Source: Candidatus Blackburnbacteria bacterium RIFCSPHIGHO2_12_FULL_44_25 (GTDB lineage Bacteria > Patescibacteriota > Microgenomatia > UBA8517 > UBA10165). From it: a stretch of DNA of 43,739 nt. The notes beneath the pieces are model-generated. The model had not been told where the DNA came from. It searched no databases and saw nothing but the letters and a program-made list of their open reading frames with translations. Positions 19,617 through 39,874 of this stretch are shown here, in pieces (position 1 is the first letter of the stretch; each line of letters opens with the position of its first letter). A program made the position numbers and the translations under genes. The stretch is from contig MHCB01000006.1 in assembly GCA_001816455.1 (NCBI GenBank), positions 1 through 43,739 of the forward strand, read 5' to 3'.

Positions 19617-20186
19617 TTAAAATTTTCTTTCTCTGCTTGAGGTTGGTGCCAACTCTGATTCAAGTTTTCTTGTTAAGAGTGCTATTGTGTGGTCGAGCGG
19701 GCCGTTGTTTTCTATATGAAAATGGGCCTTGGTTATCAATTCCATCATTCCTGCTGCAAGTTTTAGTCCATCAATAAATTCCATCTCTTTTGTTGCCTGT
19801 TCTGCGGGCGTGCCTTCCCGATCTGTAACTCTTTGTCGTCTATTTGCTTCGGTTGTGTGAATGTGGATTACAAAAACTCTGCTCTCTGGAAAAGCGGTTT
19901 CAAGATGGGTTAGAAAGTTGGGGTCGTAACAACCGTCTATTATAAAGCCTGGTTGGGCAACTTGTTCTTGGATAAGCTCAACTGTTCTTTGAGCTGCTCG
20001 GTCCCTTACACCAGAGGTCCCGATAGTTTCCATCCAATCTCGTGTTCTTTGATACCCTGCTTGTTTTGTAAGCTCTGCGGTGATTTTTCTTTCTTCAATA
20101 ACTGACAGTTTTAGTGCCTGACTGATTGCCTTAGTGATAGTTGACTTGCCAGCCCCAGAAAAGCCAGTGAAGATAAATAAGATCAT
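19617..20186 (-). CDS. P-loop kinase, NMP/dephospho-CoA kinase-like
   Basis: Walker A GFSGAGKST, FIIDG, lid RRQRVTDR, IENNG. Confidence 0.78.
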   Translation of the reverse strand: MILFIFTGFSGAGKSTITKAISQALKLSVIEERKITAELTKQAGYQRTRDWMETIGTSGVRDRAAQRTVELIQEQVAQPGFIIDGCYDPNFLTHLETAFPESRVFVIHIHTTEANRRQRVTDREGTPAEQATKEMEFIDGLKLAAGMMELITKAHFHIENNGPLDHTIALLTRKLESELAPTSSRERKF

Positions 20187-20638
20187 TAAGGAATTGCTGG
20201 TAGGGACTTAACAAGCTCTTTGGTTCCGGGGACGAGATTTTTTATTCTTCCTAGATCTTTAAGTTTTATCCATTTATATTCATTGTGTTCTGACGATAAG
20301 GTAATCTTGCCAATTAGTTTAGAAGTTATTATTATTCTTAGGAGATGGAATTTCTTTCCTGCAAACGGGTAGATTAATGAGAGTGCATGTACAATCTTGG
20401 GCCTTGATGGTTTACAGCCAAGCTCTTCTGTTATTTCCCTTTTGAATGTCTCCAGGGGTTGTTCGCCAAACTCTATTTTGCCTTCCGGTAGCTGCCAAAA
20501 GTCGGGGAATGTTTTACTGCTTGTGCTTCTGCGGACAACGAGTATCTCGTTCCTAGGCTTAATTATTACACCAGTTACTAAAACTATAAAATCTTTGAAA
20601 TGGGCTATTGCTGGTTTTTTTGTAGTTTTACTTGGCAT
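20186..20638 (-). CDS. NUDIX hydrolase
   Basis: WQLPEGKIEFGEQPLETFKREITEELG Nudix box; LSSEH..Y.W. Confidence 0.9.
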   Translation of the reverse strand: MPSKTTKKPAIAHFKDFIVLVTGVIIKPRNEILVVRRSTSSKTFPDFWQLPEGKIEFGEQPLETFKREITEELGCKPSRPKIVHALSLIYPFAGKKFHLLRIIITSKLIGKITLSSEHNEYKWIKLKDLGRIKNLVPGTKELVKSLPAIP

Positions 20639-21521
20639 TTTTCAGACTATTTTCTACCTGGTTTACCACATCTTCTACGTTTTTTAGGAGAGACTTTGTG
20701 AATTTCCACTCTTTATTAACACTGTGAGTTGCTGTTTTTATGTTTTTTCTTGCCTGGTTGATTGATTTTGTGAAAGGATTTCCTTCAAGCAATGGAAAGG
20801 AGTGGTAACCCGATTTCCTGTCCTCCTCGACCTCTATTATATCGTCTATCAATTGAAGGGCTAAGGCGTAATGAGTCGCGAACTTTGTGAGTTTCTTTCG
20901 CAGGTCGTTCCTTCCGCAAAATTCTAGTGCGGTATGAGAACCTATTTTAATAAGTTCCGCCCCATCTGCGACCCCTTTTTTATAGTCTAAGAAATTTTTA
21001 GGAGATTTTTTCCATAAAAGTTCAACTCTTTTTTGTTGTAAAAAATGATTTCTATTTACTATGTCTATTAGGATCTTGGCTATATTTTTGTACCCATTTT
21101 CGATAAGATTTTTGATAGCTTCCAGAGAAGCAATGTTGCCGGCGTATATCAATGCTGCAAGATCACTTTGATCGTTTGGTGTTTCATCCACAGCATCGTC
21201 ATGACTTGAGATTTGGAGAGAAATTGTGCCAATGCTGGATAGAATGGTCTCCGGGCATTTTTTTCCAAGGTCTAGGCATAGATAATCACAAACCGCTATC
21301 GGACCAATTGCGATTATTTTGCGATGCAGTGTATCGAATACTTGCGACAGATTCCTGTTCTTATATTTTCTCTTAAGAGCATGTTCTTGCCGGGTTAGTA
21401 TGTCTGTGTATTTTTTGATTCTATGGGGTATCAGGGGAATTAATAAGCCAGAGGAGTGGATCTTGGCAGATGGAATGTTGCCTACTTTATTCACTTGTCT
21501 GGGATAGTATACCAGACGCAC
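20628..21521 (-). CDS. Class I isoprenoid synthase-fold protein (polyprenyl synthetase / terpene synthase-like)
   Basis: Helical protein with HDDAVD (first Asp-rich motif) and LQLIDDIIEVEED (second); no RRG after the first motif. True start may be GTG 21494. Confidence 0.72.
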   Translation of the reverse strand: MRLVYYPRQVNKVGNIPSAKIHSSGLLIPLIPHRIKKYTDILTRQEHALKRKYKNRNLSQVFDTLHRKIIAIGPIAVCDYLCLDLGKKCPETILSSIGTISLQISSHDDAVDETPNDQSDLAALIYAGNIASLEAIKNLIENGYKNIAKILIDIVNRNHFLQQKRVELLWKKSPKNFLDYKKGVADGAELIKIGSHTALEFCGRNDLRKKLTKFATHYALALQLIDDIIEVEEDRKSGYHSFPLLEGNPFTKSINQARKNIKTATHSVNKEWKFTKSLLKNVEDVVNQVENSLKNAK

Positions 21522-21565
21522 TGCATGCCTGCTGCGTAGTTTGCGGCTTCTGGTTAACCAGACCG

Positions 21566-21588
21566 CACTTCCGATGTGTGATGTTTGT
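21566..21588 (+). repeat. Boundary hairpin repeat, 5'-truncated copy
   Basis: CACTTCCGATGTGTGATGTTTGT, identical to 30984-31006. Confidence 0.85.
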
Positions 21589-21623
21589 TGGGAGACGAAT
21601 TTCTAACTTAGTGAATAGGATGA

Positions 21624-21812
21624 GCCGTTTCAAGATTTGATAATATTCCACAAAAAAGGTTTAATTTAGTACTCACAGGAGCACAAGATTCTTACTTATC
21701 CTGGGCTGCATACAGCTACAAAAAGAATAAGACTGAGATAATACACGAATCACTTAACAAACAAATGGAAAAAGACCAAGTTTACAAGAAATACTTATCT
21801 AGACAGTCTTAA
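21624..21812 (+). pseudogene. Start-less gene remnant, ribbon-helix-helix-like
   Basis: Open frame AVSRFDNIPQKRFNLVLTGAQDSYLSWAAYSYKKNKTEIIHESL...* preceded by stops; it ends 3 nt before the NUDIX ATG. Confidence 0.45.
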
Positions 21813-21815
21813 TTT

Positions 21816-22271
21816 ATGGACGCATATGTAGGTGTAGTTCTAATTGACGCCAAAGAGCGTGTCTTTCTTATTAAGGAAGATGACAAGAATCATATCTCAA
21901 GGGGTAGATGGAATCTTCCTGGCGGCTCTGTTGACAGAAACGAATCTTTACCCGAAGCGGCACTTAGAGAAACAAAAGAGGAAACGGGCTGCGATGTAAG
22001 AATAACTTCTTTGCTGGGTGTTTATGAGTGTAAAAAGAGTGACAAGAATTGGCTTTATGTCGTATTCGAAGCAAGATTGGCTAAAGAGAGAAGGGGTAGA
22101 CCCGTAGATCCAGAAGTTAAAGAGGGTAAGTGGTTTACAAAAAATGAATTTCTACACCTGGACTCTTCTCAAATAGTTCACCCTGATATGCAACTTGTTT
22201 ATAACGTGGCTATCGGGGAACGTGGCTTGGATATAAACTGCGTAAAATATATTAATTACGACGACCAATAA
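21816..22271 (+). CDS. NUDIX hydrolase
   Basis: WNLPGGSVDRNESLPEAALRETKEETG canonical Nudix box. Confidence 0.92.
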   Translation: MDAYVGVVLIDAKERVFLIKEDDKNHISRGRWNLPGGSVDRNESLPEAALRETKEETGCDVRITSLLGVYECKKSDKNWLYVVFEARLAKERRGRPVDPEVKEGKWFTKNEFLHLDSSQIVHPDMQLVYNVAIGERGLDINCVKYINYDDQ

Positions 22272-22273
22272 GC

Positions 22274-22331
22274 TGGGGGAGGTTTGCCTGCTCCATACCT
22301 TATGTTAGAATCTCTATCTGTGTTTTGTCAA
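22274..22331 (-). repeat. Promoter + N-terminus repeat, copy B (stub MEQANLPQLIGRRN*)
   Basis: TTGACA-18-TAACAT-5-ATGGAGCAGGCAAACCTCCCCCA. Confidence 0.8.
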
Positions 22332-23017
22332 ACAATTTTTTCTTCGATTAGATGTTTGTTGTTCTCATAGTAATCTCTTATCCTTTCTATACCCGACCAC
22401 TCGGTTTCGCTGACATCTCTTTCCTCTTCACTTCTACTTTCATAATAGTAAACCTTGTCTATTGCATCTGACAGGGCACGGTTGAGATCGTGTTCCCACT
22501 CTGTCTCCATGTCCACAAACCTGTTGTGGCTATATAAATCAAAAGCTATGCCCTCTAAGTCACCTAGAGAAATTTTTCCGCCAAAAAAGTCTCTCAATAC
22601 CCTCAAGAATATATCTCTCGTTTTTTCCTCCCCAAGACCGTTCTTAGTAAAAGAGACCGTCTCTCGAAGGTATTCTAAAAATTTTTCTGATAAGGAAGTT
22701 TGATCTTTCATTTTTGAGTGTGGTGGGCAGCGGAGGCGATCACGATCCCTGTCGCCATGTAGCGACCCATGGGACCCAGACACCTCGCCAGTCCTGGAAT
22801 CGGTATCCCAGGAGAAGTGCCCACCGCCGTCAGACACTGACGTCGAATGATCTTTGCCCTTGCCGTCTTTGTCGAGGTCAACATGCCCGCGGTCCACATC
22901 ACCGAAATCAGAGCTATAGACATCTCCGCTTCGGTCGCCAGAGCTAGAGCCGTCGGAGTTGTCTGATCCGTTTGAGCCGTCTCGTTCTACCACTTGTGTG
23001 GCTCCTTCTACCAACAA
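22328..23017 (-). CDS. Hypothetical protein: D/G/S/H-rich N-half joined to an acidic helical C-half
   Basis: 229-aa ORF; possible start GTG 22993 after GGAG; internal Met at MKDQTS. Its TGA lies within the copy-B TTGACA. Confidence 0.5.
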   Translation of the reverse strand: MLVEGATQVVERDGSNGSDNSDGSSSGDRSGDVYSSDFGDVDRGHVDLDKDGKGKDHSTSVSDGGGHFSWDTDSRTGEVSGSHGSLHGDRDRDRLRCPPHSKMKDQTSLSEKFLEYLRETVSFTKNGLGEEKTRDIFLRVLRDFFGGKISLGDLEGIAFDLYSHNRFVDMETEWEHDLNRALSDAIDKVYYYESRSEEERDVSETEWSGIERIRDYYENNKHLIEEKIV

Positions 23018-23111
23018 ACTAGGGACATCAACGTTTCAGCGCACAAACAAATCTCGTTTGAGGCCACCTCCTTATTAAAGTACTGGTTAATTGTAGCAAG
23101 CGGGATCAACC

Positions 23112-23187
23112 GAGGAGGGTTTTTGTTGGGGAAGGTTTGCCTGCTCCATACTTTATATTAGAAGTGCGTGTTGTTCTTTGTCAAATT
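23112..23187 (-). repeat. Promoter + N-terminus repeat, copy C (stub MEQANLPQQKPSSVDPACYN*)
   Basis: 37/38 nt identical to 18692-18729, plus an identical TTCTTTGTCAAATT at the same 4420-nt offset; TTGACA-18-TAATAT-5-ATG. Confidence 0.88.
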
Positions 23188-23193
23188 CCCTGT

Positions 23194-23216
23194 ATCACAC
23201 TTCCGATGTGTGATGT
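23194..23216 (+). repeat. Boundary hairpin repeat
   Basis: ATCACAC-TTCCGAT-GTGTGAT-GT, identical to 30980-31002. Confidence 0.88.
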
Positions 23217-23300
23217 ATCCGTATAGTTCTGATGTACAGGCTGGACAATTTATGAGCAGAAAAAGTCCAATGCGGGCCTAATTTGTGATAATATTTGGTT

Positions 23301-23402
23301 ATGGAATATAAGAAAGACCCACACGGTAGACGGCTTATCGATCAAGGAGGGATTCGAGTCGAAAGGAAAGGATTTTTGGGGGAAATGGTAGTGTCTTGCT
23401 GA
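23301..23402 (+). CDS. Small ORF or truncated gene stub (33 aa)
   Basis: MEYKKDPHGRRLIDQGGIRVERKGFLGEMVVSC*, with GATAAT 8 nt upstream. Confidence 0.3.
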   Translation: MEYKKDPHGRRLIDQGGIRVERKGFLGEMVVSC

Positions 23403-23420
23403 GAGCGAGCAATAGGAGAC

Positions 23421-24281
23421 ATGTCAAAATTACAAAAGAAAGTAAATGGTGGTGACTCTAAACTTGAAACGTTAATTTCTTCTTACCCTGGTCTGTTAAC
23501 CTATAAGGGTTTTTTATCTGATTTATATGATTTTTCTACAGAATCTTCTTTTGTAAGAGGTTTTTGGGTTCATGGGTCTCGTATTACTGGCTTTTACCAT
23601 GAATTTTCTGATCTAGATATAGCCTTTGTCTTGGATAGTGACAAATCCAAGGGGAAAATAAAAAACTACCTGTCCGGTAAAATTCACTACGATCCAAGTT
23701 TTCCAGAATACTTTCTAGACACTTTATGTGAATATTGGGAATTAAATGGTATAGAGGTTGGTGTTCACATTTATACCCTCAAAGAGGTAGGTGCCAAATT
23801 GTGTAGTTTAAACAGCTCTGTTGAATTTTTTGAGCGAACTCAGGCTTTTGTGGAACATGTTTTTCTTGAATCTCTTTTTTTGGTAGATAAGGGTATGGTT
23901 TTGAAAAAGTTCAAGGATAAGGCTTATAATTACCCGGAGGATATTCGCACTGAAATAATTGAACTTTACAAAAAGAGATTGGAGCAAAAATTTGTTTGGT
24001 GGCAGAAGCGCCCTATATGGAAAAGTGTTTTTGAAGAAATTACAGATTTGAAACTGATAATCGATGAGATATCTAAGTTACATTATGCAATTAATCGTAG
24101 ATATTATGTTTATGCTTTGAAGAGTTATGCAAAAGACTTAGAGACTTTAAAGCCAAATATTAAAGATGCAGTGTTTAGTATTTGTACTATAAATCCACAG
24201 AGTTTTGAAGGAAAGGACAAAAGGAAACTAATTATGCAAGTGTTCAGTAAATTAATGCGATATTATGATGAGTATAAGTAA
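23421..24281 (+). CDS. Pol-beta-superfamily nucleotidyltransferase with helical C-terminal domain
   Basis: HGSRITG...SDLDI (GS...DxD motif); SD GGAG upstream. Confidence 0.75.
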   Translation: MSKLQKKVNGGDSKLETLISSYPGLLTYKGFLSDLYDFSTESSFVRGFWVHGSRITGFYHEFSDLDIAFVLDSDKSKGKIKNYLSGKIHYDPSFPEYFLDTLCEYWELNGIEVGVHIYTLKEVGAKLCSLNSSVEFFERTQAFVEHVFLESLFLVDKGMVLKKFKDKAYNYPEDIRTEIIELYKKRLEQKFVWWQKRPIWKSVFEEITDLKLIIDEISKLHYAINRRYYVYALKSYAKDLETLKPNIKDAVFSICTINPQSFEGKDKRKLIMQVFSKLMRYYDEYK

Positions 24282-24314
24282 AAAAGATTTTTAATGTAAA
24301 TTATTAGTTTGAAA

Positions 24315-25313
24315 ATGATTAAAATAGTTGACGTAACAATCCGCGATGGGGGTTATGAGAATAATTGGAATTTTTCGCTCAACTTCGTGGATTCTTTAAT
24401 AAGGGGTTTAGCCGAGGCTGGGATTGAATATATAGAAGTTGGGCATGGGTATGGGTTGGGGGGAGAAAGAGATTTTGGGGCTATGGCCCATACAGATAGA
24501 GAATATCTTGATTTAATAAACAAGATAAACATCAATGCCAAAATAGGAATGTTTGCAAATGTAAATATTTGCAAAGTTGATGATGTTAAACTGGCTGGAG
24601 AGTTTGGCCTTGACTTTTTAAGGGTTGGATTCATAGGATACAGAAGTCCCCATCCAATGTCGGGATTACCTCAGTTAGTTGGTGAGGCTAAAAGGCAAGG
24701 TATGTTTGTTTCAGTGAACATGGTGTTGTCAACTTTATATTCAGATAAAGATCTATTAGAAAATCTTAAATTCATTGAAGACCTGGGGTCAGATGTAATT
24801 TATTTGGTTGATAGTACGGGCGGTATGTTACCAAATGAGGTGACTAGAAAGATTGAACTCCTAAAAACTAATAGTAATATATTAGTGGGTTTCCATGGAC
24901 ATCAAAATTATGATTTGGCTGTGGCTAATTCACTGTCGGCTGTTAAAGCTGGTGCAGACTTTGTTGACGGAACACTGCTTGGTCTAGGTAGGGATCTTGG
25001 TAATGCTCAGCTTGAAATATTGATAAATGTACTTGAGGATTCTGGTTACAATCTGGAAATAGATTCCATGAAGCTTGTTGATCTAACCGATAGCGTGGTT
25101 TCATCTCTTTTTGAGAGGTCGCGAGGTGCACGGAAGCAAAATATATTGATGGCTAAATATGGAGTAATGAAACATTCCTTGGATCTTGCTTACAAAATTG
25201 CAGAAGAAAAGAAGGTGGATGTAAGAGAAGTGTTAGCCCTTATGAAAAACAAGAATATCCATTTTCCAACCTACGAGGAGGTTGTTGGTTATTTTGTTAG
25301 AGGAAACCGATGA
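24315..25313 (+). CDS. DRE-TIM aldolase, 4-hydroxy-2-oxovalerate aldolase (DmpG/NikB)-like
   Basis: DVTIRDGG, EVGHGYGLGG, YLVDSTG, GFHGHQN, GLGRDLGN. Confidence 0.85.
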   Translation: MIKIVDVTIRDGGYENNWNFSLNFVDSLIRGLAEAGIEYIEVGHGYGLGGERDFGAMAHTDREYLDLINKININAKIGMFANVNICKVDDVKLAGEFGLDFLRVGFIGYRSPHPMSGLPQLVGEAKRQGMFVSVNMVLSTLYSDKDLLENLKFIEDLGSDVIYLVDSTGGMLPNEVTRKIELLKTNSNILVGFHGHQNYDLAVANSLSAVKAGADFVDGTLLGLGRDLGNAQLEILINVLEDSGYNLEIDSMKLVDLTDSVVSSLFERSRGARKQNILMAKYGVMKHSLDLAYKIAEEKKVDVREVLALMKNKNIHFPTYEEVVGYFVRGNR

Positions 25314-26272
25314 AAGTTGTTGCTGTTGGAGGTTATATTTTTTTTAAGAAAGAGACTTATGCGAGACTTACAAAAGTTTCCGACTTCATGCATATTAAAG
25401 AGGAGCCTTCGGAAAAAGTTTTGGGGGACGCGGCCAAACAAGCTGATATTGTCGTAACTTACGGGAAAATCACCCCCTCGTTTATAAAAAAATATAGGCA
25501 CCTGAAAGCTATTATTGTATTGTCAACCGGAAAAGAAGACCTTGAAAGTGCAGAGATGTTAAATGCTGCTTCTGATTCGGATACTTTACTAATGTATACA
25601 CCGAAGTATTCAACGCAGTCTGTTGCTGAGTATACCTTAGCAGCACTGTTTTCCCTTCAAAGTAAAATATTGCTGGCTACAAGAGCCTCTTTTTTGGATC
25701 AGAGTTTTGGGGTGCTTGATTCTCAAAGGGTTTGTCTAACAAACAGTACAGTAGGAATTGTTGGTCTTGGACATATTGGTGCATATGTTGCAAACATATT
25801 GTCAAAACTAGACATAAACACTCTTGCATATACAAAGCACCCTGACGGCAAAAAACTTGATGATTATAGGGGATTTTTGACCTTTTCTCCCACTCTTGAG
25901 CATTTGTCATCTAACTCTAATTTTGTTGTGGTGACGTGCAGTTTAAACCCAGAAACTGTTGCTTTCCTCAATAAAACGTCCTTTTTTGATCATCTTAAAG
26001 CAGATGTTGGACTAATAAACACCGCTAGGGGAAGGATTTTCAATCCTGATGATTTATATAAATTTATTTCGGAAAAGAAGAAATCATGCCTTTTTGTAGA
26101 CGTTCTAGATTTCGATCTGGAAACTAACAACAAGCTGCGGCAGCTTCCCAATGTGTTTGTAACTCCACATATAGCTTTCAATAGTTTAGAAAGTCTTTAT
26201 AACTGCACAGATGTTGTTGTGGAAGACATTGGAAGTATATTAGCAGGCAAGCCTATTAACATTGTAAAATAG
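25310..26272 (+). CDS. D-isomer-specific 2-hydroxyacid dehydrogenase family
   Basis: SVAEY, GIVGLGHIG, INTARG, TPHIAF; ATGA overlap with the aldolase. Confidence 0.88.
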   Translation: MKVVAVGGYIFFKKETYARLTKVSDFMHIKEEPSEKVLGDAAKQADIVVTYGKITPSFIKKYRHLKAIIVLSTGKEDLESAEMLNAASDSDTLLMYTPKYSTQSVAEYTLAALFSLQSKILLATRASFLDQSFGVLDSQRVCLTNSTVGIVGLGHIGAYVANILSKLDINTLAYTKHPDGKKLDDYRGFLTFSPTLEHLSSNSNFVVVTCSLNPETVAFLNKTSFFDHLKADVGLINTARGRIFNPDDLYKFISEKKKSCLFVDVLDFDLETNNKLRQLPNVFVTPHIAFNSLESLYNCTDVVVEDIGSILAGKPINIVK

Positions 26273-26407
26273 ATGAGTGTCTTTGGTGGTCCGCCAAAAA
26301 TCCAGGTTGGGATGAGGCTTGATGTCAGGATTGAGTCGCTTCAACCGAATCGTCGGGACCCAACACGAAAGGATGTGAATCTTGAGTATGTTAGACATAT
26401 AAAATGA
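26273..26407 (+). CDS. Small 44-aa ORF, coupled at both ends
   Basis: MSVFGGPPKIQVGMRLDVRIESLQPNRRDPTRKDVNLEYVRHIK*; starts right after TAG 26272 and ends in an ATGA overlap. Confidence 0.35.
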   Translation: MSVFGGPPKIQVGMRLDVRIESLQPNRRDPTRKDVNLEYVRHIK

Positions 26408-26607
26408 ATCTCCCACGAGGGATAAAAAATGAAAGATTCAACACACGACTTTACGAAATGTTTATAAAAAAGATGGCCGACAGAAATATTTTATTCCCTC
26501 CTTTACCAACAGAAACAGTTTTCCTATCTCCAGTTCACGAGGAAATAATAGACGATATTGAAAGAGCATTAAAAACTACTTTGTCAGAAATGAGGGATGC
26601 AAAATAG
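26404..26607 (+). pseudogene. C-terminal remnant of a class III (HemL/GSA-like) aminotransferase
   Basis: LYEMFIKKMADRNILFPPLPTETVFLSPVH resembles the HemL C-terminus (GV..PPS.FE..F.S.AH); the PLP-binding core is absent. Confidence 0.55.
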
Positions 26608-26609
26608 TT

Positions 26610-27830
26610 ATGAGTTCTCAAAGTTCAACCATCCTGAGTAATCTCAATAAGACAATAATGTCGGCCAAAAGGACACGGCTTTACAAGGATAAAAACCTGC
26701 ACAAAATAAATTCAATAAGCGAACTGTCGGGTCTTCCGTTTACCACAAAAGAAGATCTAAGGGGGGCTTATCCATATGGGGGCTTAGCAGTTTCCGAAGA
26801 TAAAATTATCGAGGTACATACTACGTCAGGAACCACAGGTAAGCCAACCCTTTCTTTTTTAACAAGAAAAGATCTTAACGAAAGCTCAAAGGCAATTTCT
26901 GAAGCCTGGAGGGCCTTTGGAATTACTAAAAATAGCAAAGTTATGTTCATCATGAGTTACGGTTTGTTTAGTGGAGCGGCTTTAAATACATATGCGATTC
27001 AGAGTATTGGTGCCTTTGTTCTTCCTGCAGGAATTCAGCCTGTAAAAACGCAGGTAGATTTTATGGTTGAATTTGGAATAGATACTGTTATCGCTACCCC
27101 AGGGTTTTTGCTTTATCTTTATGAGTGGATGGCTGCAAATGATTTTGATCGTAGTAGGCTCAAGCTGGTTAGGGCTATTGCCGCTGGTGAAGTCTATTCC
27201 AATAAAATACGAAGGGAAATCGAGAAGAAGCTCAAAATAAAAGTATTTGACCACTACGGATTGTGTGAAGTAAATACAGGAATAGCTTATGAATGTGACA
27301 AAATGCAAGGTCTACATGTGATAGACGATTATGTCGTTCCTGAGATAGTAGACCCTGAAACCGGAAAGGTAATGCCTGAAGGAGAGTATGGAGAACTTGT
27401 GCTGACAAGTCTCAAAAAAGACGCCTCCCCCATTGTTCGATATAAAACCAAGGATATTACTCGTATTATTCCCGGTAAATGCCCATGCGGTAGACATAGA
27501 ATCCGCATTGACAGAATAAAGGCTAGAGTCGGAGAAACGCTATTTATTAAGGGAATAAAGATTGATCCTTATGAGCTGAGGGATTTTATTAGGGAATATC
27601 TAGGAAAAAGCTTTTTTGGTGGAGACATGCAAATAGTTGTGAAAGATAATGACATAAAGTTTCTGCCAAAAATTTTTCTTAGTCTCGTCCAAAATGATGA
27701 AAAAATAATTAAGAGCTTGACGGAAAAGATATATGAACAGACAAGAACCAGGTTTATTGTTGAACATGCTGACCCACAGTTTTTTAATAGAGAGAAGAAC
27801 AATAAGGTTAAATTCATCCATCATGAATAA
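26610..27830 (+). CDS. Phenylacetate-CoA ligase (PaaK)-like AMP-forming ligase
   Basis: LPFTTKEDLR..YPYG, TSGTTGKP, YGLCE, GELVLTSL, PIVRYKTKD, CPCGR. Confidence 0.9.
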   Translation: MSSQSSTILSNLNKTIMSAKRTRLYKDKNLHKINSISELSGLPFTTKEDLRGAYPYGGLAVSEDKIIEVHTTSGTTGKPTLSFLTRKDLNESSKAISEAWRAFGITKNSKVMFIMSYGLFSGAALNTYAIQSIGAFVLPAGIQPVKTQVDFMVEFGIDTVIATPGFLLYLYEWMAANDFDRSRLKLVRAIAAGEVYSNKIRREIEKKLKIKVFDHYGLCEVNTGIAYECDKMQGLHVIDDYVVPEIVDPETGKVMPEGEYGELVLTSLKKDASPIVRYKTKDITRIIPGKCPCGRHRIRIDRIKARVGETLFIKGIKIDPYELRDFIREYLGKSFFGGDMQIVVKDNDIKFLPKIFLSLVQNDEKIIKSLTEKIYEQTRTRFIVEHADPQFFNREKNNKVKFIHHE

Positions 27831-29013
27831 CAAGTTTGAAGTGGATTCCTTATGTTACGACTTGGTTACTTGGCTTAATAAAAAGAAGAGCATAATTTTC
27901 AAATTAAACAATGAATGCACTCAAGATACTGAATATTCAATAAAAATTGATTTTCAGTTTATTAATCAGTATCTACTCTCTTACTCTAAAAACAATTCAC
28001 ACTTTTTCAACTCTCAATTGAAGCCAAAAGGAAAGGTCATACTTGTTTTATCGTTTAACGAACCATTAGTTACAGCGATAGTTCCAGTTCTAAACGCACT
28101 GGTTGCAGGGAATGAAGTTGTGGTTCGTCCAAGTAGGCGGGGGACTAGAATTTTTGACTACATATGGAAAGAGAGTGGTGTTTGTCAAAAATATGGAGGG
28201 AACCTAAAGACAATGTCTGGTGGTGGGCCGGAAGTTCTAGAAAAAGAGCTCATGTGTGCACAAGCTTTATATTTTTTTGGTGGACATAAAAACGCAAAAA
28301 CAGTCTTTCTTTTATGCTCTAAGAACTTTGTTGAGTTCTATCCTGAAATCGAAGCCGCAGATTTTAAAGTTGTCAAGATTAGCAATCTTAGTAACTTCGA
28401 TATGGATCAAGATATTGAAACTTCACTAACGGAGGCTTTTACTCACACTGGACAAAGCTGCCAAAGAATCCAAGGAATATTTGTTCACGACAGCAACCAT
28501 GAAGAGTATTCAAAAAGAATCCTTAAAAGGTTCAATCAACTAGTGTTGTCAAAAAGAATAGAAAGATATATTTCTCCTAATTTTAATTTTGATGAAACAA
28601 TGGTTCAACAATTAAATGTTGATATGTCAAAAGCCGCACCAACAAAACTTATTAGGGCAAACAATAAATTTGGGTTTCCCGTTTTGGTCCTAAATCCAAA
28701 TCCTAAAAGTGTCTTTGTTCAGTCTGCTTATTTTTTGCCAGTCATCTGGGTAACCAGGTACTCAACAGAAGAAGAATTGTTTGATAATATATCCTCTCGA
28801 CCATACCATCTTGGAGTAAATATCCAATCGGATGAGGATAAGTTCATCCAGAAACTAATAAGAAAAACAAATTTTACCAGATATACAGTTAACACTGATC
28901 ACTCGAGAGTTAGACCTAACGAAGGATGGGGTGGAAGTTGGCCGACCGGCTATTCTGGGAACAAAAGCTGGTTGGAGCTTTTTTCATACCCATATCAAAT
29001 CGTGACACAATGA
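27823..29013 (+). CDS. Divergent aldehyde dehydrogenase superfamily protein
   Basis: SFNEP, ALVAGNEVVVRPS, AFTHTGQSCQ (catalytic Cys), WGG. Start ATG 27823 overlaps the ligase stop. Confidence 0.78.
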   Translation: MNNKFEVDSLCYDLVTWLNKKKSIIFKLNNECTQDTEYSIKIDFQFINQYLLSYSKNNSHFFNSQLKPKGKVILVLSFNEPLVTAIVPVLNALVAGNEVVVRPSRRGTRIFDYIWKESGVCQKYGGNLKTMSGGGPEVLEKELMCAQALYFFGGHKNAKTVFLLCSKNFVEFYPEIEAADFKVVKISNLSNFDMDQDIETSLTEAFTHTGQSCQRIQGIFVHDSNHEEYSKRILKRFNQLVLSKRIERYISPNFNFDETMVQQLNVDMSKAAPTKLIRANNKFGFPVLVLNPNPKSVFVQSAYFLPVIWVTRYSTEEELFDNISSRPYHLGVNIQSDEDKFIQKLIRKTNFTRYTVNTDHSRVRPNEGWGGSWPTGYSGNKSWLELFSYPYQIVTQ

Positions 29014-29045
29014 AATCTTGGAATTACAGGGAGGAAGTCATAGAC

Positions 29046-30317
29046 TTACTCTGCCTCGATTGCTAGCATGTTTAACGACCTTTTTCCCAGCCTAATCACG
29101 AAACTTCCATTTTCGGCAAGTTTTATGTGTGCGGTTTTTGGGTCAATTGGTATACCATCAACATAGAACCCGTGTTGCTCGATCAGTCTCCGCACATCCG
29201 CTTTACTCCTAGCCAAGTTTTTCTCAACTAGCAAGCTCACTAGAGCTTTGATGCTAATATCTCCAGGTTCAAGCTTACTCCTTAGAACTGATTCTGGGGT
29301 TTCCATCCTTTGAACAGTACTTTGGAAATATGTTGCAGCGTTATCGGCAGCTTCATTACCGTCATAGAGTCTTACTACTTCATGTGCCAAAACCTTTTTC
29401 AGTGCTACAATATCTGCGGTCCCATCGTGTAATTCTTGTATTGACCTTCCTACAAAATCCATAGGAAGTCGAGTTGCACATTCTAGATATGTGGGTATAA
29501 GGGAGTCGGCAATCTTCATCAATTGAACGTATTTTATCTCCGGAGTGTCGTCGATCCATATGCAGTTTCCTATGCTAGTACTCATCTTTTCTCCATCGGG
29601 ACCTATTAGCAATTGGGTGGTCATATAATCCTGAGGAGGCATACCATATGCCTCTTGAACATCTCGTCCTTTGGTGAGGTTATACGTTTGGTCGGTCCCC
29701 CCAAGCTCAACATCAGCGTTAATCATTACAGAATCATACGCCTGAAGAAGAGGATAAAATGCTTCCGCAAATGAAACAGAGTCGCCCCGACTAATTCTAT
29801 CGGAGAAATTTTTTCTTCCCACCGCTTCCTGCATTGTCTGACATGATGCAAGTCTTAAGAGTGTATCCAGTGAAATATTTTCCAACCAATCAGCATTATG
29901 AACTAATTCCAGCTTTGAAACATCAAGGATCCTAGCAAATTGCTGCATATAATCTTTAATATTATCTGCAATCTGTTTCGGCGTGAGTCCTTTTCTGGCA
30001 CCTGTCTTATCAGATGAGTCGCCAACCTGTGCGGTTCCGTCACCGATAATTATCACAATTTGATGTCCTAAATCTTGAAATTCTTTCAGTTTTAACAGAG
30101 TAGATCCCCGACCTACGTGTAACCTAGAGCCCGTAGGATCAATTCCCAGCTTGACTCTTAAAACTGTGCCTTCCTCCAGCAACCTGGCCCGAAGATGTTC
30201 CTTATCAGCCACTTCAACTACGCCTCGAGTCAATAGCTCATCTACTCTACTTTCTATTTCCTTTCTGCTGGCTGTTTCGGGAATCATGGCTTCAGGTTTT
30301 ACTCTTTCTCCAGTCAT
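29046..30317 (-). CDS. tyrS: Tyrosine--tRNA ligase (possibly an accessory copy)
   Basis: KLGIDPTG..LHVGR, YPLLQAYD, ELGGTDQ.YN, KMSTS, C-terminal S4-like domain. Start ATG 30317 lies downstream of TATAAT. Confidence 0.92.
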   Translation of the reverse strand: MTGERVKPEAMIPETASRKEIESRVDELLTRGVVEVADKEHLRARLLEEGTVLRVKLGIDPTGSRLHVGRGSTLLKLKEFQDLGHQIVIIIGDGTAQVGDSSDKTGARKGLTPKQIADNIKDYMQQFARILDVSKLELVHNADWLENISLDTLLRLASCQTMQEAVGRKNFSDRISRGDSVSFAEAFYPLLQAYDSVMINADVELGGTDQTYNLTKGRDVQEAYGMPPQDYMTTQLLIGPDGEKMSTSIGNCIWIDDTPEIKYVQLMKIADSLIPTYLECATRLPMDFVGRSIQELHDGTADIVALKKVLAHEVVRLYDGNEAADNAATYFQSTVQRMETPESVLRSKLEPGDISIKALVSLLVEKNLARSKADVRRLIEQHGFYVDGIPIDPKTAHIKLAENGSFVIRLGKRSLNMLAIEAE

Positions 30318-30502
30318 GGTATAGCGAAAATTATACACCACGATCCAGCCCAGTCAAGCTATATACTTTAGGAAAATCATTCCGCGCCCTTTTTCTCTTG
30401 AAGCAAACAGGGTTCTTCACATTGCTCTGAGCGCCAGACTCACACCGAGAGAGATGGTGGATGTTGACAGTTGGTCCGGTCCGGAATAGACTAAGACCCA
30501 TA

Positions 30503-30880
30503 ATGGGCCTAGTTGAGAGAATTAAGCAAATTGCTAGTGGGAAAGAAAGGGGTTCGGTTGTTAAACCCACGAGGAAACTTGCGGATGTATTGTCGGGTTC
30601 GAGAATTTTAGATATTTTGGAGGGACTGAGAGACCAAACACCGCTAGAGTTCTCTAGCCAGGTTGTTGAAGACGGCAAAAAGATAGTAATTAGAGTAAAT
30701 TGGCCGACAGTTGTTAGCCAGGGAAAGAAGGGGTTTACGGTTTCTCTCACCGAAGAGTCTATATCATTTATGGGCAATACGCCCAACAACCACAGGCATC
30801 TAGAGGGTATGGATATGCAAGATGGAGAATTAATCGAGAACTCGTTGTTAGAAGCCTTCAGAAGTCCGTCAATGGTCTAA
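30503..30880 (+). CDS. Hypothetical protein
   Basis: ORF preceded by TTGACA(30464)-17-TAGACT; start reassigned to ATG 30503. Confidence 0.55.
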   Translation: MGLVERIKQIASGKERGSVVKPTRKLADVLSGSRILDILEGLRDQTPLEFSSQVVEDGKKIVIRVNWPTVVSQGKKGFTVSLTEESISFMGNTPNNHRHLEGMDMQDGELIENSLLEAFRSPSMV

Positions 30881-30979
30881 AAATCCCTCCTGTTTTTGCT
30901 TGCCTAAGCCAACTTTTAGAAAAAGAGGTAGTCTTCTCAGGCTACTCTGCAATTTTTTAGACGCTGAAATTGGGTATGG

Positions 30980-31006
30980 ATCACACTTCCGATGTGTGAT
31001 GTTTGT
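30980..31006 (+). repeat. Boundary hairpin repeat
   Basis: ATCACACTTCCGATGTGTGATGTTTGT. Confidence 0.88.
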
Positions 31007-31012
31007 AGTGTG

Positions 31013-31249
31013 TTACGAGGTGGGTTTTTCTAGTTTTACAAGACGATCATCGTGGTCTGCTAGATCGTCGTTTATACGCTGGTGAGAAAACTGGTGGGCG
31101 TCAAAATTGTCTCTTATTTTTTGCAATTCACTAAGGATTTCATCTTTAAATTCCAGCAGGTCGTTTTTAATCTCGCTGTGAAGTTCGGTTTTCAACCCTT
31201 CTAGTCGTTCGTCTAAGTATTTTTTAGTGACTGGGGTTTTGTCGTTCAC
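31013..31249 (-). CDS. Small coiled-coil protein
   Basis: Heptad-like VTKKYLDERL...DHDDRLVKLE; promoter TTGACA(31285)-17-TAACAT-7-GTG. Confidence 0.7.
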   Translation of the reverse strand: MNDKTPVTKKYLDERLEGLKTELHSEIKNDLLEFKDEILSELQKIRDNFDAHQFSHQRINDDLADHDDRLVKLEKPTS

Positions 31250-31292
31250 ATCTTACATGTTATGCAGTGAAAACTAGGGTGTCAACGAATGG

Positions 31293-31335
31293 AAAAGGGC
31301 AGGGCCATCCTTGATGGATAGGCGGCCCTGCCTTT
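31293..31335 (-). terminator. Intrinsic terminator candidate
   Basis: GGCAGGGCC...GGCCCTGCC stem followed by CTTTT on the minus strand, just after the 31354 stop. Confidence 0.6.
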
Positions 31336-31353
31336 GGTACCCTGTGGGAGAAT

Positions 31354-33240
31354 TTATGTGGTGCGGGATTCTCCGGGGTTGTGGGCGGCAAGCACTTGGG
31401 GTGGTTTGGGATTCCAGGCAGGACTGTCGGCTTGGTTGATGACAACTTCCCCACCACCAGACGCATTGGTAATAGTCAGCGTTGACACGCACTTCTCTCG
31501 GCAAGTATAGTCCACCGCAGCGATCGCCCCACCGTCGAATGAAGGGACGGCAATGGCGCCTTTTACTGTGAATCGCTGTACATTGTTGTTTGCCGTGTCG
31601 ACTCGCCAGAAAATTGGTTTTTCGTCTTGACGACAGGCTGTGCCAACGAGCAACTTGGAGGTTTGGCCAAGCCACGAAAGTTGAAAGTCCACCATGCCCA
31701 TTTCGCGTCCACAACTCATGCTAACATCCAAGACTTTGGTGCTGGTTTGGGTCGCTGAGTCGTAAACCATCACCGCCGCCGGGCGTGATCTTTGAGCAGA
31801 CATATAGGCAATCTTGCCTTGGGAAGGACTCCATTGAGCGTTGAAAAACTGCTTATCGTAAGTAAGTGAGAAATCCAGACCACTTGTACGCGGCAAGCCG
31901 ATATGTGCCACCTCGACACGACTGTACGGTGATCTGTTGGTATCGGTGGCAGCGTAAACAAACCATAAGTTGTCGAAGTCATCACCCGACCAGCTGGGCG
32001 GATAGTAGAGCGCGACGTTGGAGCTTCCGTGACTCAAAATCCGTTGCCTTTGGACATCAAAGACCGCGATCGTCCCGACAAAGAAGCCCAAACTTTGGGT
32101 TGCGGAGTCGAGAAACACGATAAACTCACCACTAGGAGACCAGCTTGGCAAAGCGCCCTTGGCAACAACTCGTGTTCGTCCTGAGAAAACATCTGTAAGC
32201 AGGAGTTCTGTCGAGTGGTCTGCTTTTATCCGCGTGTAGGCAAGCGTTGTGCCGTCTGGCGACCAGGCAAGATTGGAGTACCAGTGCCTTGCATAACTCT
32301 CGATAGGTTGGCCGTCTTGAGTTAGCTTCCTCTTTTCGCCTGTGGCAAGCCTGGCAAGCCAGATATTGCCGTCCGCACCAGTATAGGCTATCTCGCCGGT
32401 CCGCAGGGCTTCACCATGAGGTAACTCGGCAAGGGCTTCCTTGATGGTCCGAATGGCAGACTGGGCGTGCAGGATTTGTTCGTGCCCGGCGCAGGTAGCC
32501 CAGTATGCTGATGAGGCACACTTTACTCCTGTTGTGACTCCAAGGTTGAAGAAAACCTCGAACCCAGGAATCATTGCATCCAGCGTTGGGACCATAACGT
32601 CGTCGACAGAAGATAGAGTGCGGATGACGACTTTTTCTTTCAGGCGTTCTGCCAGGGCGATGTTCCTGTTCAGAACAATCTCCTGATTGAGTTGTACGAG
32701 TACTTGCGCAACGTCGCTTTCTGCGAGATCGTAACTAACCTTGTCAGCCATCACCCGGATCGTCTCTTTACTGCTACCGTTCACGGGGCTGTCGAGGGTT
32801 ACCAGGTGTTTGATGTGCCTGAGCGCAGGTCCTTGCTCCTCTGTTCCAGTGTAGTTTAGTGCAATCAGTCCGCCCAGGCTATGTCCCAAAAGATCTATCG
32901 AAACTCCGGGGCAGCGCTGGATTTCTTCGTTGATTGTTTGCCTGAGTGCGCTGACACTGTGGGATAAATGCTGATGAGTGTTTTTCTTTGTGTAGTTGTT
33001 TCGATCCTGGAGATTGTAACTAAACGGAAGAACCTTGTTGTATCGTGGTCCGGCCGCGTTGATTATGTCGCCAAACGTCTCTGTCCAACTGCTGTATTCG
33101 GTTTCAATTCCCTGTAACAGCAATAAGACACGCTCGTTACAAGCGATTTTGGTTTGTGCGGTTGACGTGCCTCCCGGTAGAAGAAGACCCAGCAAGAGCA
33201 CGGTGTACAACAAGTGCCTAAACCAGCTATACTTTTTCAA
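31354..33240 (-). CDS. Secreted alpha/beta hydrolase (lipase/PGAP1-like) fused to a TolB-like beta-propeller
   Basis: Signal peptide; GHSLGG, LVTLDSP, DDVMVP, GHEQI; repeats AWSPDG, SWSPSG, QWSPS, SPAW. Start TTG 33240 follows GGAGGGG. Confidence 0.82.
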   Translation of the reverse strand: MKKYSWFRHLLYTVLLLGLLLPGGTSTAQTKIACNERVLLLLQGIETEYSSWTETFGDIINAAGPRYNKVLPFSYNLQDRNNYTKKNTHQHLSHSVSALRQTINEEIQRCPGVSIDLLGHSLGGLIALNYTGTEEQGPALRHIKHLVTLDSPVNGSSKETIRVMADKVSYDLAESDVAQVLVQLNQEIVLNRNIALAERLKEKVVIRTLSSVDDVMVPTLDAMIPGFEVFFNLGVTTGVKCASSAYWATCAGHEQILHAQSAIRTIKEALAELPHGEALRTGEIAYTGADGNIWLARLATGEKRKLTQDGQPIESYARHWYSNLAWSPDGTTLAYTRIKADHSTELLLTDVFSGRTRVVAKGALPSWSPSGEFIVFLDSATQSLGFFVGTIAVFDVQRQRILSHGSSNVALYYPPSWSGDDFDNLWFVYAATDTNRSPYSRVEVAHIGLPRTSGLDFSLTYDKQFFNAQWSPSQGKIAYMSAQRSRPAAVMVYDSATQTSTKVLDVSMSCGREMGMVDFQLSWLGQTSKLLVGTACRQDEKPIFWRVDTANNNVQRFTVKGAIAVPSFDGGAIAAVDYTCREKCVSTLTITNASGGGEVVINQADSPAWNPKPPQVLAAHNPGESRTT

Positions 33241-33252
33241 GGTACCCCTCCT

Positions 33253-33624
33253 ATGAGGCCAACTCAACCCAAAATTGGGCTAATTCGAATTATACTTTTT
33301 CTTGTTGTTCAGTTTCTAGGAGTGGTTTTTTCGTTTGTTTTCTCCCTTATACCCTCAGCTATGATTGTTGTTTTTAATTCCGATTCGATTCTTGAAGCGA
33401 CGAGTTCAGCGGTTAAAATAGTGTTAGTGGTTGGAACAATTTCAGCCTTTTTGGTGGGGATCGCAACGTATGCTTTGACCAGAAGAGTAAGATGGGTAAA
33501 GATGTCTGTGGCTATCACTTTCTTAGCAGCGGCATTACCGCCACTTTTAGTTCTAACCGGTGTAGGCGGGGTATTATTCTGGGTGATAGGTGCTTGGATG
33601 TCGTTTTGGGGATCTTTTCGCTAG
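33253..33624 (+). CDS. Small multi-pass membrane protein
   Basis: 3-4 hydrophobic helices; ATG 33253. Confidence 0.5.
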   Translation: MRPTQPKIGLIRIILFLVVQFLGVVFSFVFSLIPSAMIVVFNSDSILEATSSAVKIVLVVGTISAFLVGIATYALTRRVRWVKMSVAITFLAAALPPLLVLTGVGGVLFWVIGAWMSFWGSFR

Positions 33625-35727: not shown

Positions 35728-35754
35728 AAAATTAATACTCCTCCTTTAAAAACA

Positions 35755-36450
35755 CTAATATGTTAGTACAGGATTTTTGTAGCGCAAGTCAACTGAGACG
35801 GGCACTTTATTATCCATTTTAGTCCGGGTTAGGATTAGTTGTAAAGCTCCGGTGAGAAGAGTTGGATCAAGGTCCACAGGATAAGTTACAATTAGTGCCG
35901 GAAGTACTATTTCTAAACGGTCCCTAAAGAGCGTGGCTTTCCTGACTTCGTCGATTTTGGACGTTAACTTGACGAGCTTTCCTGATGTTACTACCCGGGA
36001 ATCTACTTTTTCGCCTACGACTGGGGTTTTGTAGTCTGTACTTAATACTAAGCTTGGTAATGCGGTGTTTCTTGCGAACGATAGGACTGTTCCGTTGGAG
36101 TCGACCACAAAAAACCCTTCACCGATCCCCTCTTTTTTTAAGGCGATGTAGCCTTTTCGTTTTTGGATGACAACTTCGATGGTACTCGGGAAAACTCTTT
36201 GAATAAAAACTTCTTCATTTTTAAACCTCTGGAGGAGTTTTTCTTTTAAGCGCTTTGCATTGAAAGTTATTATGTTTTCTCCAAGTGCGGAGTTGGTTAT
36301 CTTTAAGTCCTCCTCCTCGCAAGGTCCATATTGTGTTTTGCATTCGATACGTCTTGCCTCAAGAAATTTCGCGTTCGTTATGTTTTCCCGCATTATCCAA
36401 AGGAGGCTGAATGAGAGTGGGACAGACAGCAGGAGTAGTTTTTTCTTCAT
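35755..36450 (-). CDS. ftsQ: FtsQ/DivIB-like cell division protein
   Basis: N-terminal TM, POTRA-like QRVFPSTIEV, C-terminal VDLRYKNPV; lies between murG and ftsA. Confidence 0.75.
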   Translation of the reverse strand: MKKKLLLLSVPLSFSLLWIMRENITNAKFLEARRIECKTQYGPCEEEDLKITNSALGENIITFNAKRLKEKLLQRFKNEEVFIQRVFPSTIEVVIQKRKGYIALKKEGIGEGFFVVDSNGTVLSFARNTALPSLVLSTDYKTPVVGEKVDSRVVTSGKLVKLTSKIDEVRKATLFRDRLEIVLPALIVTYPVDLDPTLLTGALQLILTRTKMDNKVPVSVDLRYKNPVLTY

Positions 36451-38754: not shown

Positions 38755-38791
38755 GGGTAGACATTTTTACCTTCTTTGTTTAGGCTTGTGC

Positions 38792-39847: not shown

Positions 39848-39874
39848 TTTTAAAGATTATATGCCAATCGCGAA

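Follow-up and report, generated by a model that had tools for sequence, protein, structure and literature searches.

A rare modular operon with a constant PaaK-like/aldehyde dehydrogenase gene pair and a linked extra tyrosyl-tRNA synthetase in a Blackburnbacteria genome

The stretch of DNA analysed here (the window) comprises positions 1 to 43,739 of contig MHCB01000006.1 from Candidatus Blackburnbacteria bacterium RIFCSPHIGHO2_12_FULL_44_25 (assembly GCA_001816455.1), a groundwater organism with a very small genome, and between 23421 and 30341 it carries a block of small-molecule enzyme genes that faces a gene for a second tyrosyl-tRNA synthetase (TyrRS). We find that this block belongs to a rare, laterally spreading operon, in which a constant pair of genes, for a PaaK-like adenylate-forming enzyme and an aldehyde dehydrogenase (ALDH), is combined with swappable modules and persistently linked to an extra TyrRS. 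The operon probably makes or handles a tyrosine-like compound. The reading we favour, to which we give a probability of roughly 35%, is that of a horizontally acquired modular small-molecule operon that is functionally tied to its spare TyrRS: an acid would be converted to an aldehyde, elaborated and finally adenylylated, giving a compound that is either like tyrosyl-adenylate or an analogue of tyrosine, and the TyrRS would provide immunity.

A constant pair, exchangeable modules and a linked synthetase

One genome per species was scanned with an alignment of PaaK-like relatives, yielding 18 loci in Woesebacteria, Moranbacteria, Taylorbacteria, Saccharibacteria, Parcubacteria and further metagenome-assembled genomes. 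The ALDH gene lies directly downstream of the PaaK-like gene in 16 of the 18 (the remaining two contigs stop inside the PaaK-like gene), and a TyrRS homolog is found in 17 of the 18, within a fetched flank of up to 8 kb. The PaaK-like gene is sparsely distributed: of 400 other genomes drawn from the whole phylum, a single one carries it (E<=1e-60), and the 40 relatives searched contain no close homolog, the best match there being 27% identical. Many metagenomic relatives exist at 45-81% identity, some labelled Parcubacteria, Berkelbacteria, Patescibacteria or Woesearchaeota; the closest (P0007-P0009) are 80-81% identical. The initial annotation of this DNA had suggested searching for the whole gene set across genomes. 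A functional set does recur, and the TyrRS link holds in the 17 loci as well as in both loci that share the aldolase and 2-hydroxyacid dehydrogenase of the window, but gene order is not fixed, and only the succession of PaaK-like enzyme and ALDH is constant.

Sixteen pair-bearing genomes were compared for their tyrS content, namely the window genome (G000) and 15 of the 18 locus genomes. At least two tyrS genes above the TIGR00234 cut-off are present in 13 of these, and one in G046, G049 and G050; among 40 pair-less relatives, two strong matches were seen in two (G025 and G038). In G043 (C7:1576-2730) and G049 (C98:3072-4205), the unlinked tyrS contains an internal stop (TAA, TGA), which suggests, at the level of gene sequence, that the linked TyrRS can carry translation alone.

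The linked TyrRS were defined as a group before tree building, and one long-branch sequence (L071) was omitted from the careful tree. They fall into at least five separate clades: a single clade for the 20 linked copies is rejected (approximately unbiased test, p = 0.0001), and on the tree of 45 TyrRS these copies need six label changes, compared to about 15 for shuffled labels. Because the linked copies span several clades, TyrRS of different types and several origins have been recruited repeatedly to the operon.

Some further synthetase genes were observed around these loci. The paralog of G038, a genome without the PaaK-like gene, is the nearest relative of the TyrRS of the window and of locus L024. 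It is divergent from an adjoining Amidohydro_2 gene (L166, on G038:C8; 7040-8047 on the minus and 8281-9555 on the plus strand), whose product is 31% identical to the Amidohydro_2 protein of the type A loci described below; the two genes possibly represent the system in a minimal or residual state. Extra class-Ic synthetase genes, encoding 350-aa TrpRS/TyrRS-like proteins, lie beside the operon in L026 (10491-11543) and L028 (10497-11546).

Neighbour clustering and domain scans revealed two arrangements besides that of the window, so that three types can be listed:

Type A (9 loci): homoserine-kinase-like APH kinase, NadR-like adenylyltransferase and HemL-like class-III aminotransferase upstream of the pair; Amidohydro_2 sometimes first; TyrRS inside or beside the operon
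Type B (5 loci, with partial forms in L026 and L039): helix-turn-helix regulator, TyrRS, a 258-aa protein (c7) and an iron-type alcohol dehydrogenase (Fe-ADH) upstream of the pair, with overlapping stops and starts
Type C (the window, L083 and L085): nucleotidyltransferase (NTase), aldolase and D-isomer-specific 2-hydroxyacid dehydrogenase (2-HADH)

Each type carries an enzyme of adenylyl or phospho transfer (the kinase and NadR-like protein in A, c7 in B, the NTase in C) and an aldehyde-handling enzyme (the HemL-like aminotransferase, Fe-ADH and the aldolase, respectively). In type B loci the operon opens with TyrRS, whose stop overlaps the start of the following gene. Three natural fusion proteins of 737-778 aa (P0266, P0267 and P0268) join an N-terminal Fe-ADH of the type B kind to a C-terminal PaaK-like enzyme that is 53-54% identical to that of the window.

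The window also preserves what seems to be the scar of a module swap. The class-III aminotransferase is full length in 9 of the 18 related loci, and the initial annotation had recognised an aminotransferase remnant here; this is borne out by a 67-aa open reading frame (ORF) that matches only the C-terminal 61 residues (335-395, at 59% identity) of the 396-aa aminotransferase of L024. Elsewhere in the genome, neither a second piece of the aminotransferase nor any further vestige of the type A genes was found. The remaining genes shared with L024 are well conserved (PaaK-like 73%, ALDH 55% and the convergent TyrRS 77% identical). We infer from these sequence comparisons that an L024-like type A operon may have lost its upstream half to the NTase-aldolase-2-HADH set.

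The three type C genes of the window occur in none of the 18 loci. A metagenome scan with an alignment of the aldolase gave 80 loci, which were compared together with three genome loci. Four of the 83 match another window gene as well, and two of the four carry several. L085 encodes an NTase (31% identical to that of the window), a frameshifted aldolase, 2-HADH, a fragment of an archaeal-type TyrRS (3029-3592), ALDH, a bacterial TyrRS, a sulfotransferase and a NUDIX protein; L083 encodes the aldolase, 2-HADH, a PaaK-family ligase, a class-V aminotransferase, an unknown gene and a full archaeal-type TyrRS (5366-6508). L106 and L152 have a distant 2-HADH match only. Archaeal-type TyrRS are described in bacteria of the candidate phyla radiation (CPR) in an earlier report (PMC5370408). 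As a side observation, a close relative of the aldolase sits in an unrelated glycan or phosphonate-like cluster (L084, 2253-11508), together with NeuB, an ATP-grasp ligase, a methyltransferase, a radical SAM/SPASM protein, a glycosyltransferase, LicD and a phosphonate ABC transporter.

Our literature searches, with subscription journals and bioRxiv supplements outside their reach, returned no description of the operon. This window contributes type C as a module, a module swap marked by an aminotransferase scar, the ANT-like NTase shared by types B and C, and the Fe-ADH::PaaK-like fusions.

Genes and surroundings of the block

The block consists of six intact genes and one stub by ORF calls, each name being backed by Pfam and NCBIfam, in agreement with the gene set given in the initial annotation. 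With the flanking elements, the features are:

23194..23216, plus strand: hairpin of the repetitive extragenic palindrome (REP) type, 7-bp stem and 7-nt loop, identical to the copy at 30980
23421..24281, plus strand: NTase, ANT(4')-like, a Pol-beta-type small-molecule nucleotidyltransferase of 286 aa (Pfam NTP_transf_2, 25.4 bits)
24309..25313, plus strand: HMGL/DmpG-like pyruvate aldolase (Pfam HMGL-like, 125.8 bits); the ATG at 24315 is the likely start
25310..26272, plus strand: 2-HADH, 320 aa (Pfam/NCBIfam)
26404..26607, plus strand: C-terminal remnant of a HemL-like class-III aminotransferase, 67 aa (match to the L024 aminotransferase)
26610..27830, plus strand: PaaK-like adenylate-forming enzyme, 406 aa, constant core gene (NCBIfam PaaK models)
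27823..29013, plus strand: short ALDH-superfamily enzyme, 396 aa, constant core gene (Pfam Aldedh, 90.9 bits); a longer frame starts from 27733
29046..30341, minus strand: second TyrRS, divergent, of the Thermus/TyrZ type (TIGR00234, 273.6 bits), convergent with the enzyme operon; alternative ATG at 30317
30331..30789, minus strand: 152-aa ORF of unknown function upstream of TyrRS, an uncertain member of the system
30980..31002, plus strand: REP-type hairpin, second identical copy

The start of 2-HADH overlaps the stop of the aldolase (ATGA at 25310), and the start of ALDH overlaps the stop of the PaaK-like gene by 8 nt (27823-27830), both as previously described; a third such junction had been placed at 26404, where an ATGA is indeed present, but no gene stops there, and the stop of 2-HADH at 26272 leaves a gap of 131 nt. 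The convergence of the enzyme genes on the TyrRS gene likewise stands, as does the AT-richness noted before: the enzyme genes have a GC content of 32.5-38.2%, compared to 44.1% for the genome (an assembly of 841 kb, 95.7% complete). TyrRS is at 42.8%. In L024, the closest related locus, the TyrRS gene similarly lies about 5 points above its neighbours, so the offset is no argument against joint transfer. The 152-aa ORF gave no Pfam, NCBIfam or PADLOC match, and has no counterpart among the 18 related loci.

The NTase belongs to a very rare family, with 48 representatives (E<=1e-3) among 1.84 billion proteins. Its AF2 model (pLDDT, the predicted local distance difference test score, 94.4) shows the two-domain fold of an NTase plus a helical domain, and the best Foldseek matches are 6nmk and 1kny (kanamycin/ANT(4') nucleotidyltransferase, LinB; TMq 0.60, TMt 0.66). 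Residues G52, S53, D64 and D66 are invariant in 33 sequences and form the G-S/T ... D-x-D motif of ANT enzymes, in line with an ANT(4')-like assignment. The type B protein c7 has a G-T...D-x-D motif, and its model (pLDDT 86) matches the same ANT(4')-like structures; profile-profile alignment of the window NTase (P0001) with c7 by hhalign gives E = 1e-4 over 172 columns at a probability of 58%. Based on these models, an ANT-like NTase appears to be an element common to types B and C.

The aldolase can be assigned to its broad subfamily only, scoring 230.3 bits against NF006049 (cut-off 229) and 205 bits against TIGR03217 (cut-off 286). This subfamily is small: the nearest relatives are at most 47% identical, and matches occur in 3 of 400 other phylum genomes (E<=1e-20). 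No match to the communication domain DmpG_comm was seen at E<=0.01, and the partner dehydrogenase DmpF (TIGR03215) was not found in the genome. The view that the block lacks a DmpF partner and is not a meta-cleavage operon is thus upheld.

The PaaK-like enzyme scores 255 and 236 bits against NCBIfam PaaK models, below their cut-offs, and 230 bits against PDB 4r1l. It retains the 57 invariant columns of the family alignment, the ANL motifs and the C-terminal lysine, and its best solved relatives are phenylacetate-CoA ligases. Dephospho-CoA kinase (CoaE, TIGR00152) was not found in the genome, which nonetheless has this gene of a 'CoA ligase' family; because no CoaE was found, direct reduction of an acyl-AMP or acyl-enzyme fits better than a CoA ligase role. 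Nor were the 2-oxoacid:ferredoxin oxidoreductase domains POR_N and TPP_enzyme_C found in the genome, and on these negative searches, together with that for CoaE, tyrosine salvage by reductive carboxylation of 4-hydroxyphenylacetyl-CoA is rejected for this genome. In ALDH, Asn79, Glu177 and Cys213 are invariant in 16 aligned sequences, and the best PDB matches are ALDH3-like.

The initial annotation had asked for a separate housekeeping tyrS, and one is present on contig C38 (318 bits against TIGR00234, the window copy being the second of the two tyrS in the genome). It clusters with the single tyrS of relatives of the same family and is 34% identical to the window TyrRS. A search of relatives from the same genus and from the same family returned no cluster-linked TyrRS. 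A single gene for tRNA-Tyr was found in the genome. The window TyrRS is of the Thermus/TyrZ type, with 6bqy and 1h3e as the best PDB matches, and its HIGH and KMSKS motifs read HVGR and KMSTS; eukaryotic TyrRS function with KMSSS. Since the tyrosine-binding motifs GxDPT, GD..D, YP..Q.YDS and GGxDQ and an S4-like C-terminal domain are retained, it looks like a working TyrRS, judged by its motifs. Its 77% identity is to an L024 TyrRS in the same position and orientation. Altered amino-acid specificity was considered on account of a Lys at the 'Tyr34' column, and rejected: the same Lys is found in the Thermus and 6bqy TyrRS.

Control of TyrRS by a T-box or other RNA switch was rejected after an Rfam scan (21400-31500, E<=1) that returned no T-box and no other RNA element; the whole window gives tRNA-Val only. 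Promoter and terminator scans were not better than shuffles, including the scan that gave a promoter-like TTGACT-16-TATAAT (11/12) at 30357-30330 on the minus strand, just 5' of the alternative TyrRS start at 30317. A defence-system reading was discarded as well: PADLOC gave no meaningful match, a single one of 19 bits falling on the NAD-binding stretch of the dehydrogenase.

The region around the block is strain-variable. Contigs from four DNA sequencing runs over 20500-33500 come from the same strain only and are fragmented, showing no joints and no block-less variant, and the neighbours of the block (orf229 and a 637-aa hydrolase) have no conserved counterparts in five relatives, hence no empty site could be identified there.

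The block had also been described as bracketed by hairpins. The hairpins at 23194 and 30980 are indeed identical over 23 bp, but they are not specific to the block: the family has six copies (<=2 mismatches) in the 841-kb genome, compared to none for the reversed control, and three of the six lie inside the window, where 0.04 are expected by chance. The third window copy, with two mismatches, is at 21562-21584, between a 297-aa ORF and a NUDIX gene. All six copies differ in their flanks, which are unrelated. Among six Y1-transposase genes (REP-associated tyrosine transposase-like, RAYT-like) in the genome, that on contig C10 has hairpin copies on both sides. The hairpins are ordinary dispersed REP elements of the C10 RAYT, and are therefore silent on the borders of the block; a role as att sites or island ends is ruled out by the unlike flanks and by the copies flanking the RAYT. 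As in other REP/RAYT systems (REPtrons), we see a short imperfect palindrome, dispersed between genes and placed on both sides of a Y1-transposase gene, with no unusual feature. The window itself contains a Y1_Tnp (IS200/RAYT-like) gene at 9207-9875 on the plus strand, between its own short repeats (~9161-9200 and 9900-9935), which are unlike the 23-bp hairpin.

NUDIX hydrolase genes adjoin the block in the window (20186-20638, minus strand; 21816-22271, plus strand) and in L085 (7563-8363, minus strand), which could matter should the product be a nucleotide conjugate. Elsewhere, the window encodes a division and cell-wall cluster (34444-43730 and 9943-11175: ftsA, murG-like, two ftsW/rodA, mraY-like, FemAB-like, a DegT aminotransferase, a Mur ligase and ftsZ) and an SdrD_B-domain protein of 1163 aa (13818-17309).

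Possible roles of the operon

In the route that we consider most plausible, the PaaK-like enzyme would activate an aryl or tyrosine-related carboxylic acid and ALDH would reduce the activated acid to an aldehyde, on which the swappable module would then act. In the window, aldol addition of pyruvate by the DmpG-like aldolase would yield a 4-hydroxy-2-oxo acid, 2-HADH would reduce the 2-oxo group of this aldol product, and the ANT(4')-like NTase would adenylylate a hydroxyl of the reduced product. The resulting compound would look like tyrosyl-adenylate, or else be an analogue of tyrosine that disturbs TyrRS; in the producer, the linked, divergent TyrRS would sustain the charging of tRNA-Tyr and so act as immunity. 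The scheme draws on the recurrent linkage of the pair to TyrRS, the raised tyrS copy number, the repeated recruitment of different TyrRS, the two intact-looking linked copies in genomes whose other tyrS has a stop, the retained tyrosine-binding motifs, the transfer and aldehyde-handling enzymes of every type, the Fe-ADH fusions, the recurrence of type C and the negative search for CoaE. In this scheme the identity of the substrate is wholly inferred, and so are the direction of the ALDH reaction, the adenylylation of the product and the immunity function of TyrRS.

Several observations weigh against this immunity scheme. The general-base Glu of ALDH is retained (E177) and the closest solved structures are those of hydrolytic, ALDH3-type enzymes, which suits oxidation of an aldehyde as well as, or better than, reduction of an acid. 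Neither an exporter nor a transporter turned up in the window scans or as a conserved neighbour in the loci. TyrRS is convergent here and not co-transcribed with the enzyme genes; G046 has the pair, no TyrRS in the fetched flank and one tyrS only; and the HxGR and KMS[TS]S motifs occur in only two of the linked TyrRS clades, the others being canonical. The aminotransferase is truncated in the window, which marks it as a rearranged copy, and type C recurs on only two metagenome contigs, one with a frameshifted aldolase. Finally, three unrelated modules acting on one aldehyde are odd for a single product, and would suit a catabolic funnel.

Such a funnel, with a catabolic or detoxifying role, is a serious rival and only somewhat less probable than the favoured scheme. 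Amines (type A), alcohols (type B) and 2,4-dihydroxy or 4-hydroxy-2-oxo acids (type C) would all be converted to one aryl aldehyde, which ALDH would oxidise to an acid, to be activated by the PaaK-like enzyme; the kinase or NTase would inactivate a toxic tyrosine analogue, and the spare TyrRS would be a more selective or insensitive back-up against analogues such as tyramine or tyrosol. The upper routes of the phenylacetyl-CoA catabolon are a precedent, DmpG-type aldolases normally cleave, ANT and APH folds are those of classic drug-modifying enzymes, and the Amidohydro_2 family, with genes in some loci and beside the G038 TyrRS paralog, includes aromatic-acid decarboxylases. The full hydrolytic triad Asn/Glu/Cys of ALDH, the true phenylacetate-CoA ligases among the best PaaK-like matches, and the three modules meeting at one aldehyde are all consistent with this. 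However, no downstream use of an arylacetyl-CoA is visible (POR_N, TPP_enzyme_C and CoaE being absent from the search results), a NadR-like adenylyltransferase has no obvious catabolic role, and the order of the pair, always the adenylating enzyme and then ALDH with overlapping codons, is that of activation followed by reduction.

The operon could also make a nucleotide-activated aryl or tyrosine-derived building block, such as an envelope head group or decoration or a cofactor, the spare TyrRS securing the charging of tRNA-Tyr while tyrosine is drained; we consider this unlikely. The kinase and NadR-like adenylyltransferase of type A resemble the activation of head groups by a kinase and an NTase, and in L031 and L039 the pair is followed by genes for a PlsC-type acyltransferase and HAD proteins. 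The enterococcal tyramine cluster (tyrosine decarboxylase, TDC) offers a precedent: its second tyrS stands beside a tyrosine-consuming pathway and is proposed to secure charging (PMC3315439). Against this, no transferase able to make use of the activated product is conserved, neither a tyrosine decarboxylase nor a transporter appears in the Pfam scans of window and loci, and the Rfam scan around the window TyrRS shows no T-box or other element.

Alternatively, the TyrRS paralog might itself be a pathway enzyme, with Tyr-AMP or Tyr-tRNA being reduced by the ALDH-like enzyme to tyrosinal and the PaaK-like enzyme carrying out a separate ligation. This would parallel the C5 pathway, in which Glu-tRNA reductase is followed by the HemL aminomutase, and glutamate-1-semialdehyde aminomutase is what the aminotransferase of type A matches best (NF000818, 318 bits); the extra short TyrRS/TrpRS-like proteins in L026 and L028 and the TyrRS fragment in L085 point the same way. 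We find it improbable, given that the ALDH fold is unrelated to glutamyl-tRNA reductase, that the linked TyrRS look complete and ordinary with a tRNA-binding domain and seem to be the sole intact copy in two genomes, and that one tRNA-Tyr gene was found.

The initial annotation had allowed for a patchwork of remnants; that the window holds a decaying type A operon, whose kinase, adenylyltransferase and most of the aminotransferase gave way to an unrelated NTase-aldolase-2-HADH insertion, its genes no longer cooperating, is the least probable reading, as the aminotransferase stub after its 131-nt gap, the strain-variable surroundings and the low GC would agree with it, but decay applies to the stub only, the other six genes being full length with family-invariant residues kept, and NTase, aldolase or 2-HADH recur beside ALDH or a PaaK-like enzyme and TyrRS in L085 and L083.

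We retain the immunity scheme as the preferred reading. A more far-reaching proposal, which we hold to be less likely than not, is that ultra-small episymbiotic CPR bacteria and DPANN archaea exchange a mobile modular pathway for an antimetabolite mimicking tyrosyl-adenylate, in which an ANT- or NadR-type enzyme would install the AMP and the co-transferred, insensitive TyrRS would confer immunity. If true, CPR/DPANN would have yielded their first antibiotic-like pathway and, with it, the first natural weapon of this kind directed at TyrRS, with hosts or competitors as possible targets. Should the product be an adenylate mimic, a novel scaffold would become available against a target already validated for antibiotics. 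The prevailing view of CPR and DPANN organisms is one of minimal biosynthesis; an operon this rare, moving together with a tRNA synthetase of its own, would offer a concrete, testable handle on their chemical dealings with the hosts or neighbours around them. Three exchangeable modules around a single constant pair amount to a natural experiment, from which the intermediate they share should become apparent. That TyrRS of unrelated types were recruited time and again suggests that TyrRS is the biological target or bottleneck.

Comparison with known systems

The succession of an activating enzyme and, directly after it, an ALDH-superfamily reductase is shared with the LuxC/LuxE fatty-acid reductase, ProB/ProA and carboxylic-acid reductases, where ATP-dependent activation is followed by Cys-dependent reduction without CoA. 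The families differ from those of LuxC/LuxE, the pair described here belonging to Pfam PF00501 (AMP-binding) and PF00171 (Aldedh) instead of LuxE PF04443 and LuxC PF05893; in some look-alike clusters of the Atlas, LuxC is found in only 25-35% of members. The block does not belong to the DmpFG meta-cleavage family: the aldolase stays below the cut-off of the 4-hydroxy-2-oxovalerate aldolase equivalog (TIGR03217), and neither the communication domain nor a DmpF partner was found.

In the nikkomycin route to hydroxypyridylhomothreonine, the NikE ligase, the NikA dehydrogenase, the DmpG-like aldolase NikB and an aminotransferase act together. The logic of acid activation, aldehyde formation, aldol addition with a 2-oxo acid and modification at C2 is matched in the window by the ligase, ALDH, DmpG-like aldolase and 2-HADH, and L083 even has an aminotransferase for the last step. 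The block differs in having an ALDH-superfamily instead of a DmpF-like dehydrogenase, a PaaK-type ligase, reduction instead of transamination (the aminotransferase being the 67-aa stub), and an added NTase and TyrRS. By analogy, the block may work like the nikkomycin route without being a member of it. The initial annotation had drawn this parallel, with TyrRS as a conceivable resistance or loading enzyme.

Gene clusters for aminoacyl-tRNA synthetase (aaRS) inhibitors can contain a resistant copy of the target, as for mupirocin and IleRS, indolmycin and TrpRS, or borrelidin and ThrRS. We know of no TyrRS-inhibitor pathway with the present enzyme set, and the setting is different, i.e. CPR bacteria and DPANN-like archaea with genomes below 1.5 Mb, and no polyketide synthase, nonribosomal peptide synthetase or exporter. 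The likeness lies in the second, divergent copy of one aaRS that is linked to small-molecule enzymes across lineages while the housekeeping copy is kept: the window genome has a second tyrS, and a linked, divergent TyrRS is found in many lineages. The enterococcal TDC cluster (PMC3315439) differs in its decarboxylase, antiporter and T-box, none of which was found by the Pfam scans of the window and loci or the Rfam scan here, and resembles the present operon in that a second tyrS stands beside a small-molecule pathway related to tyrosine.

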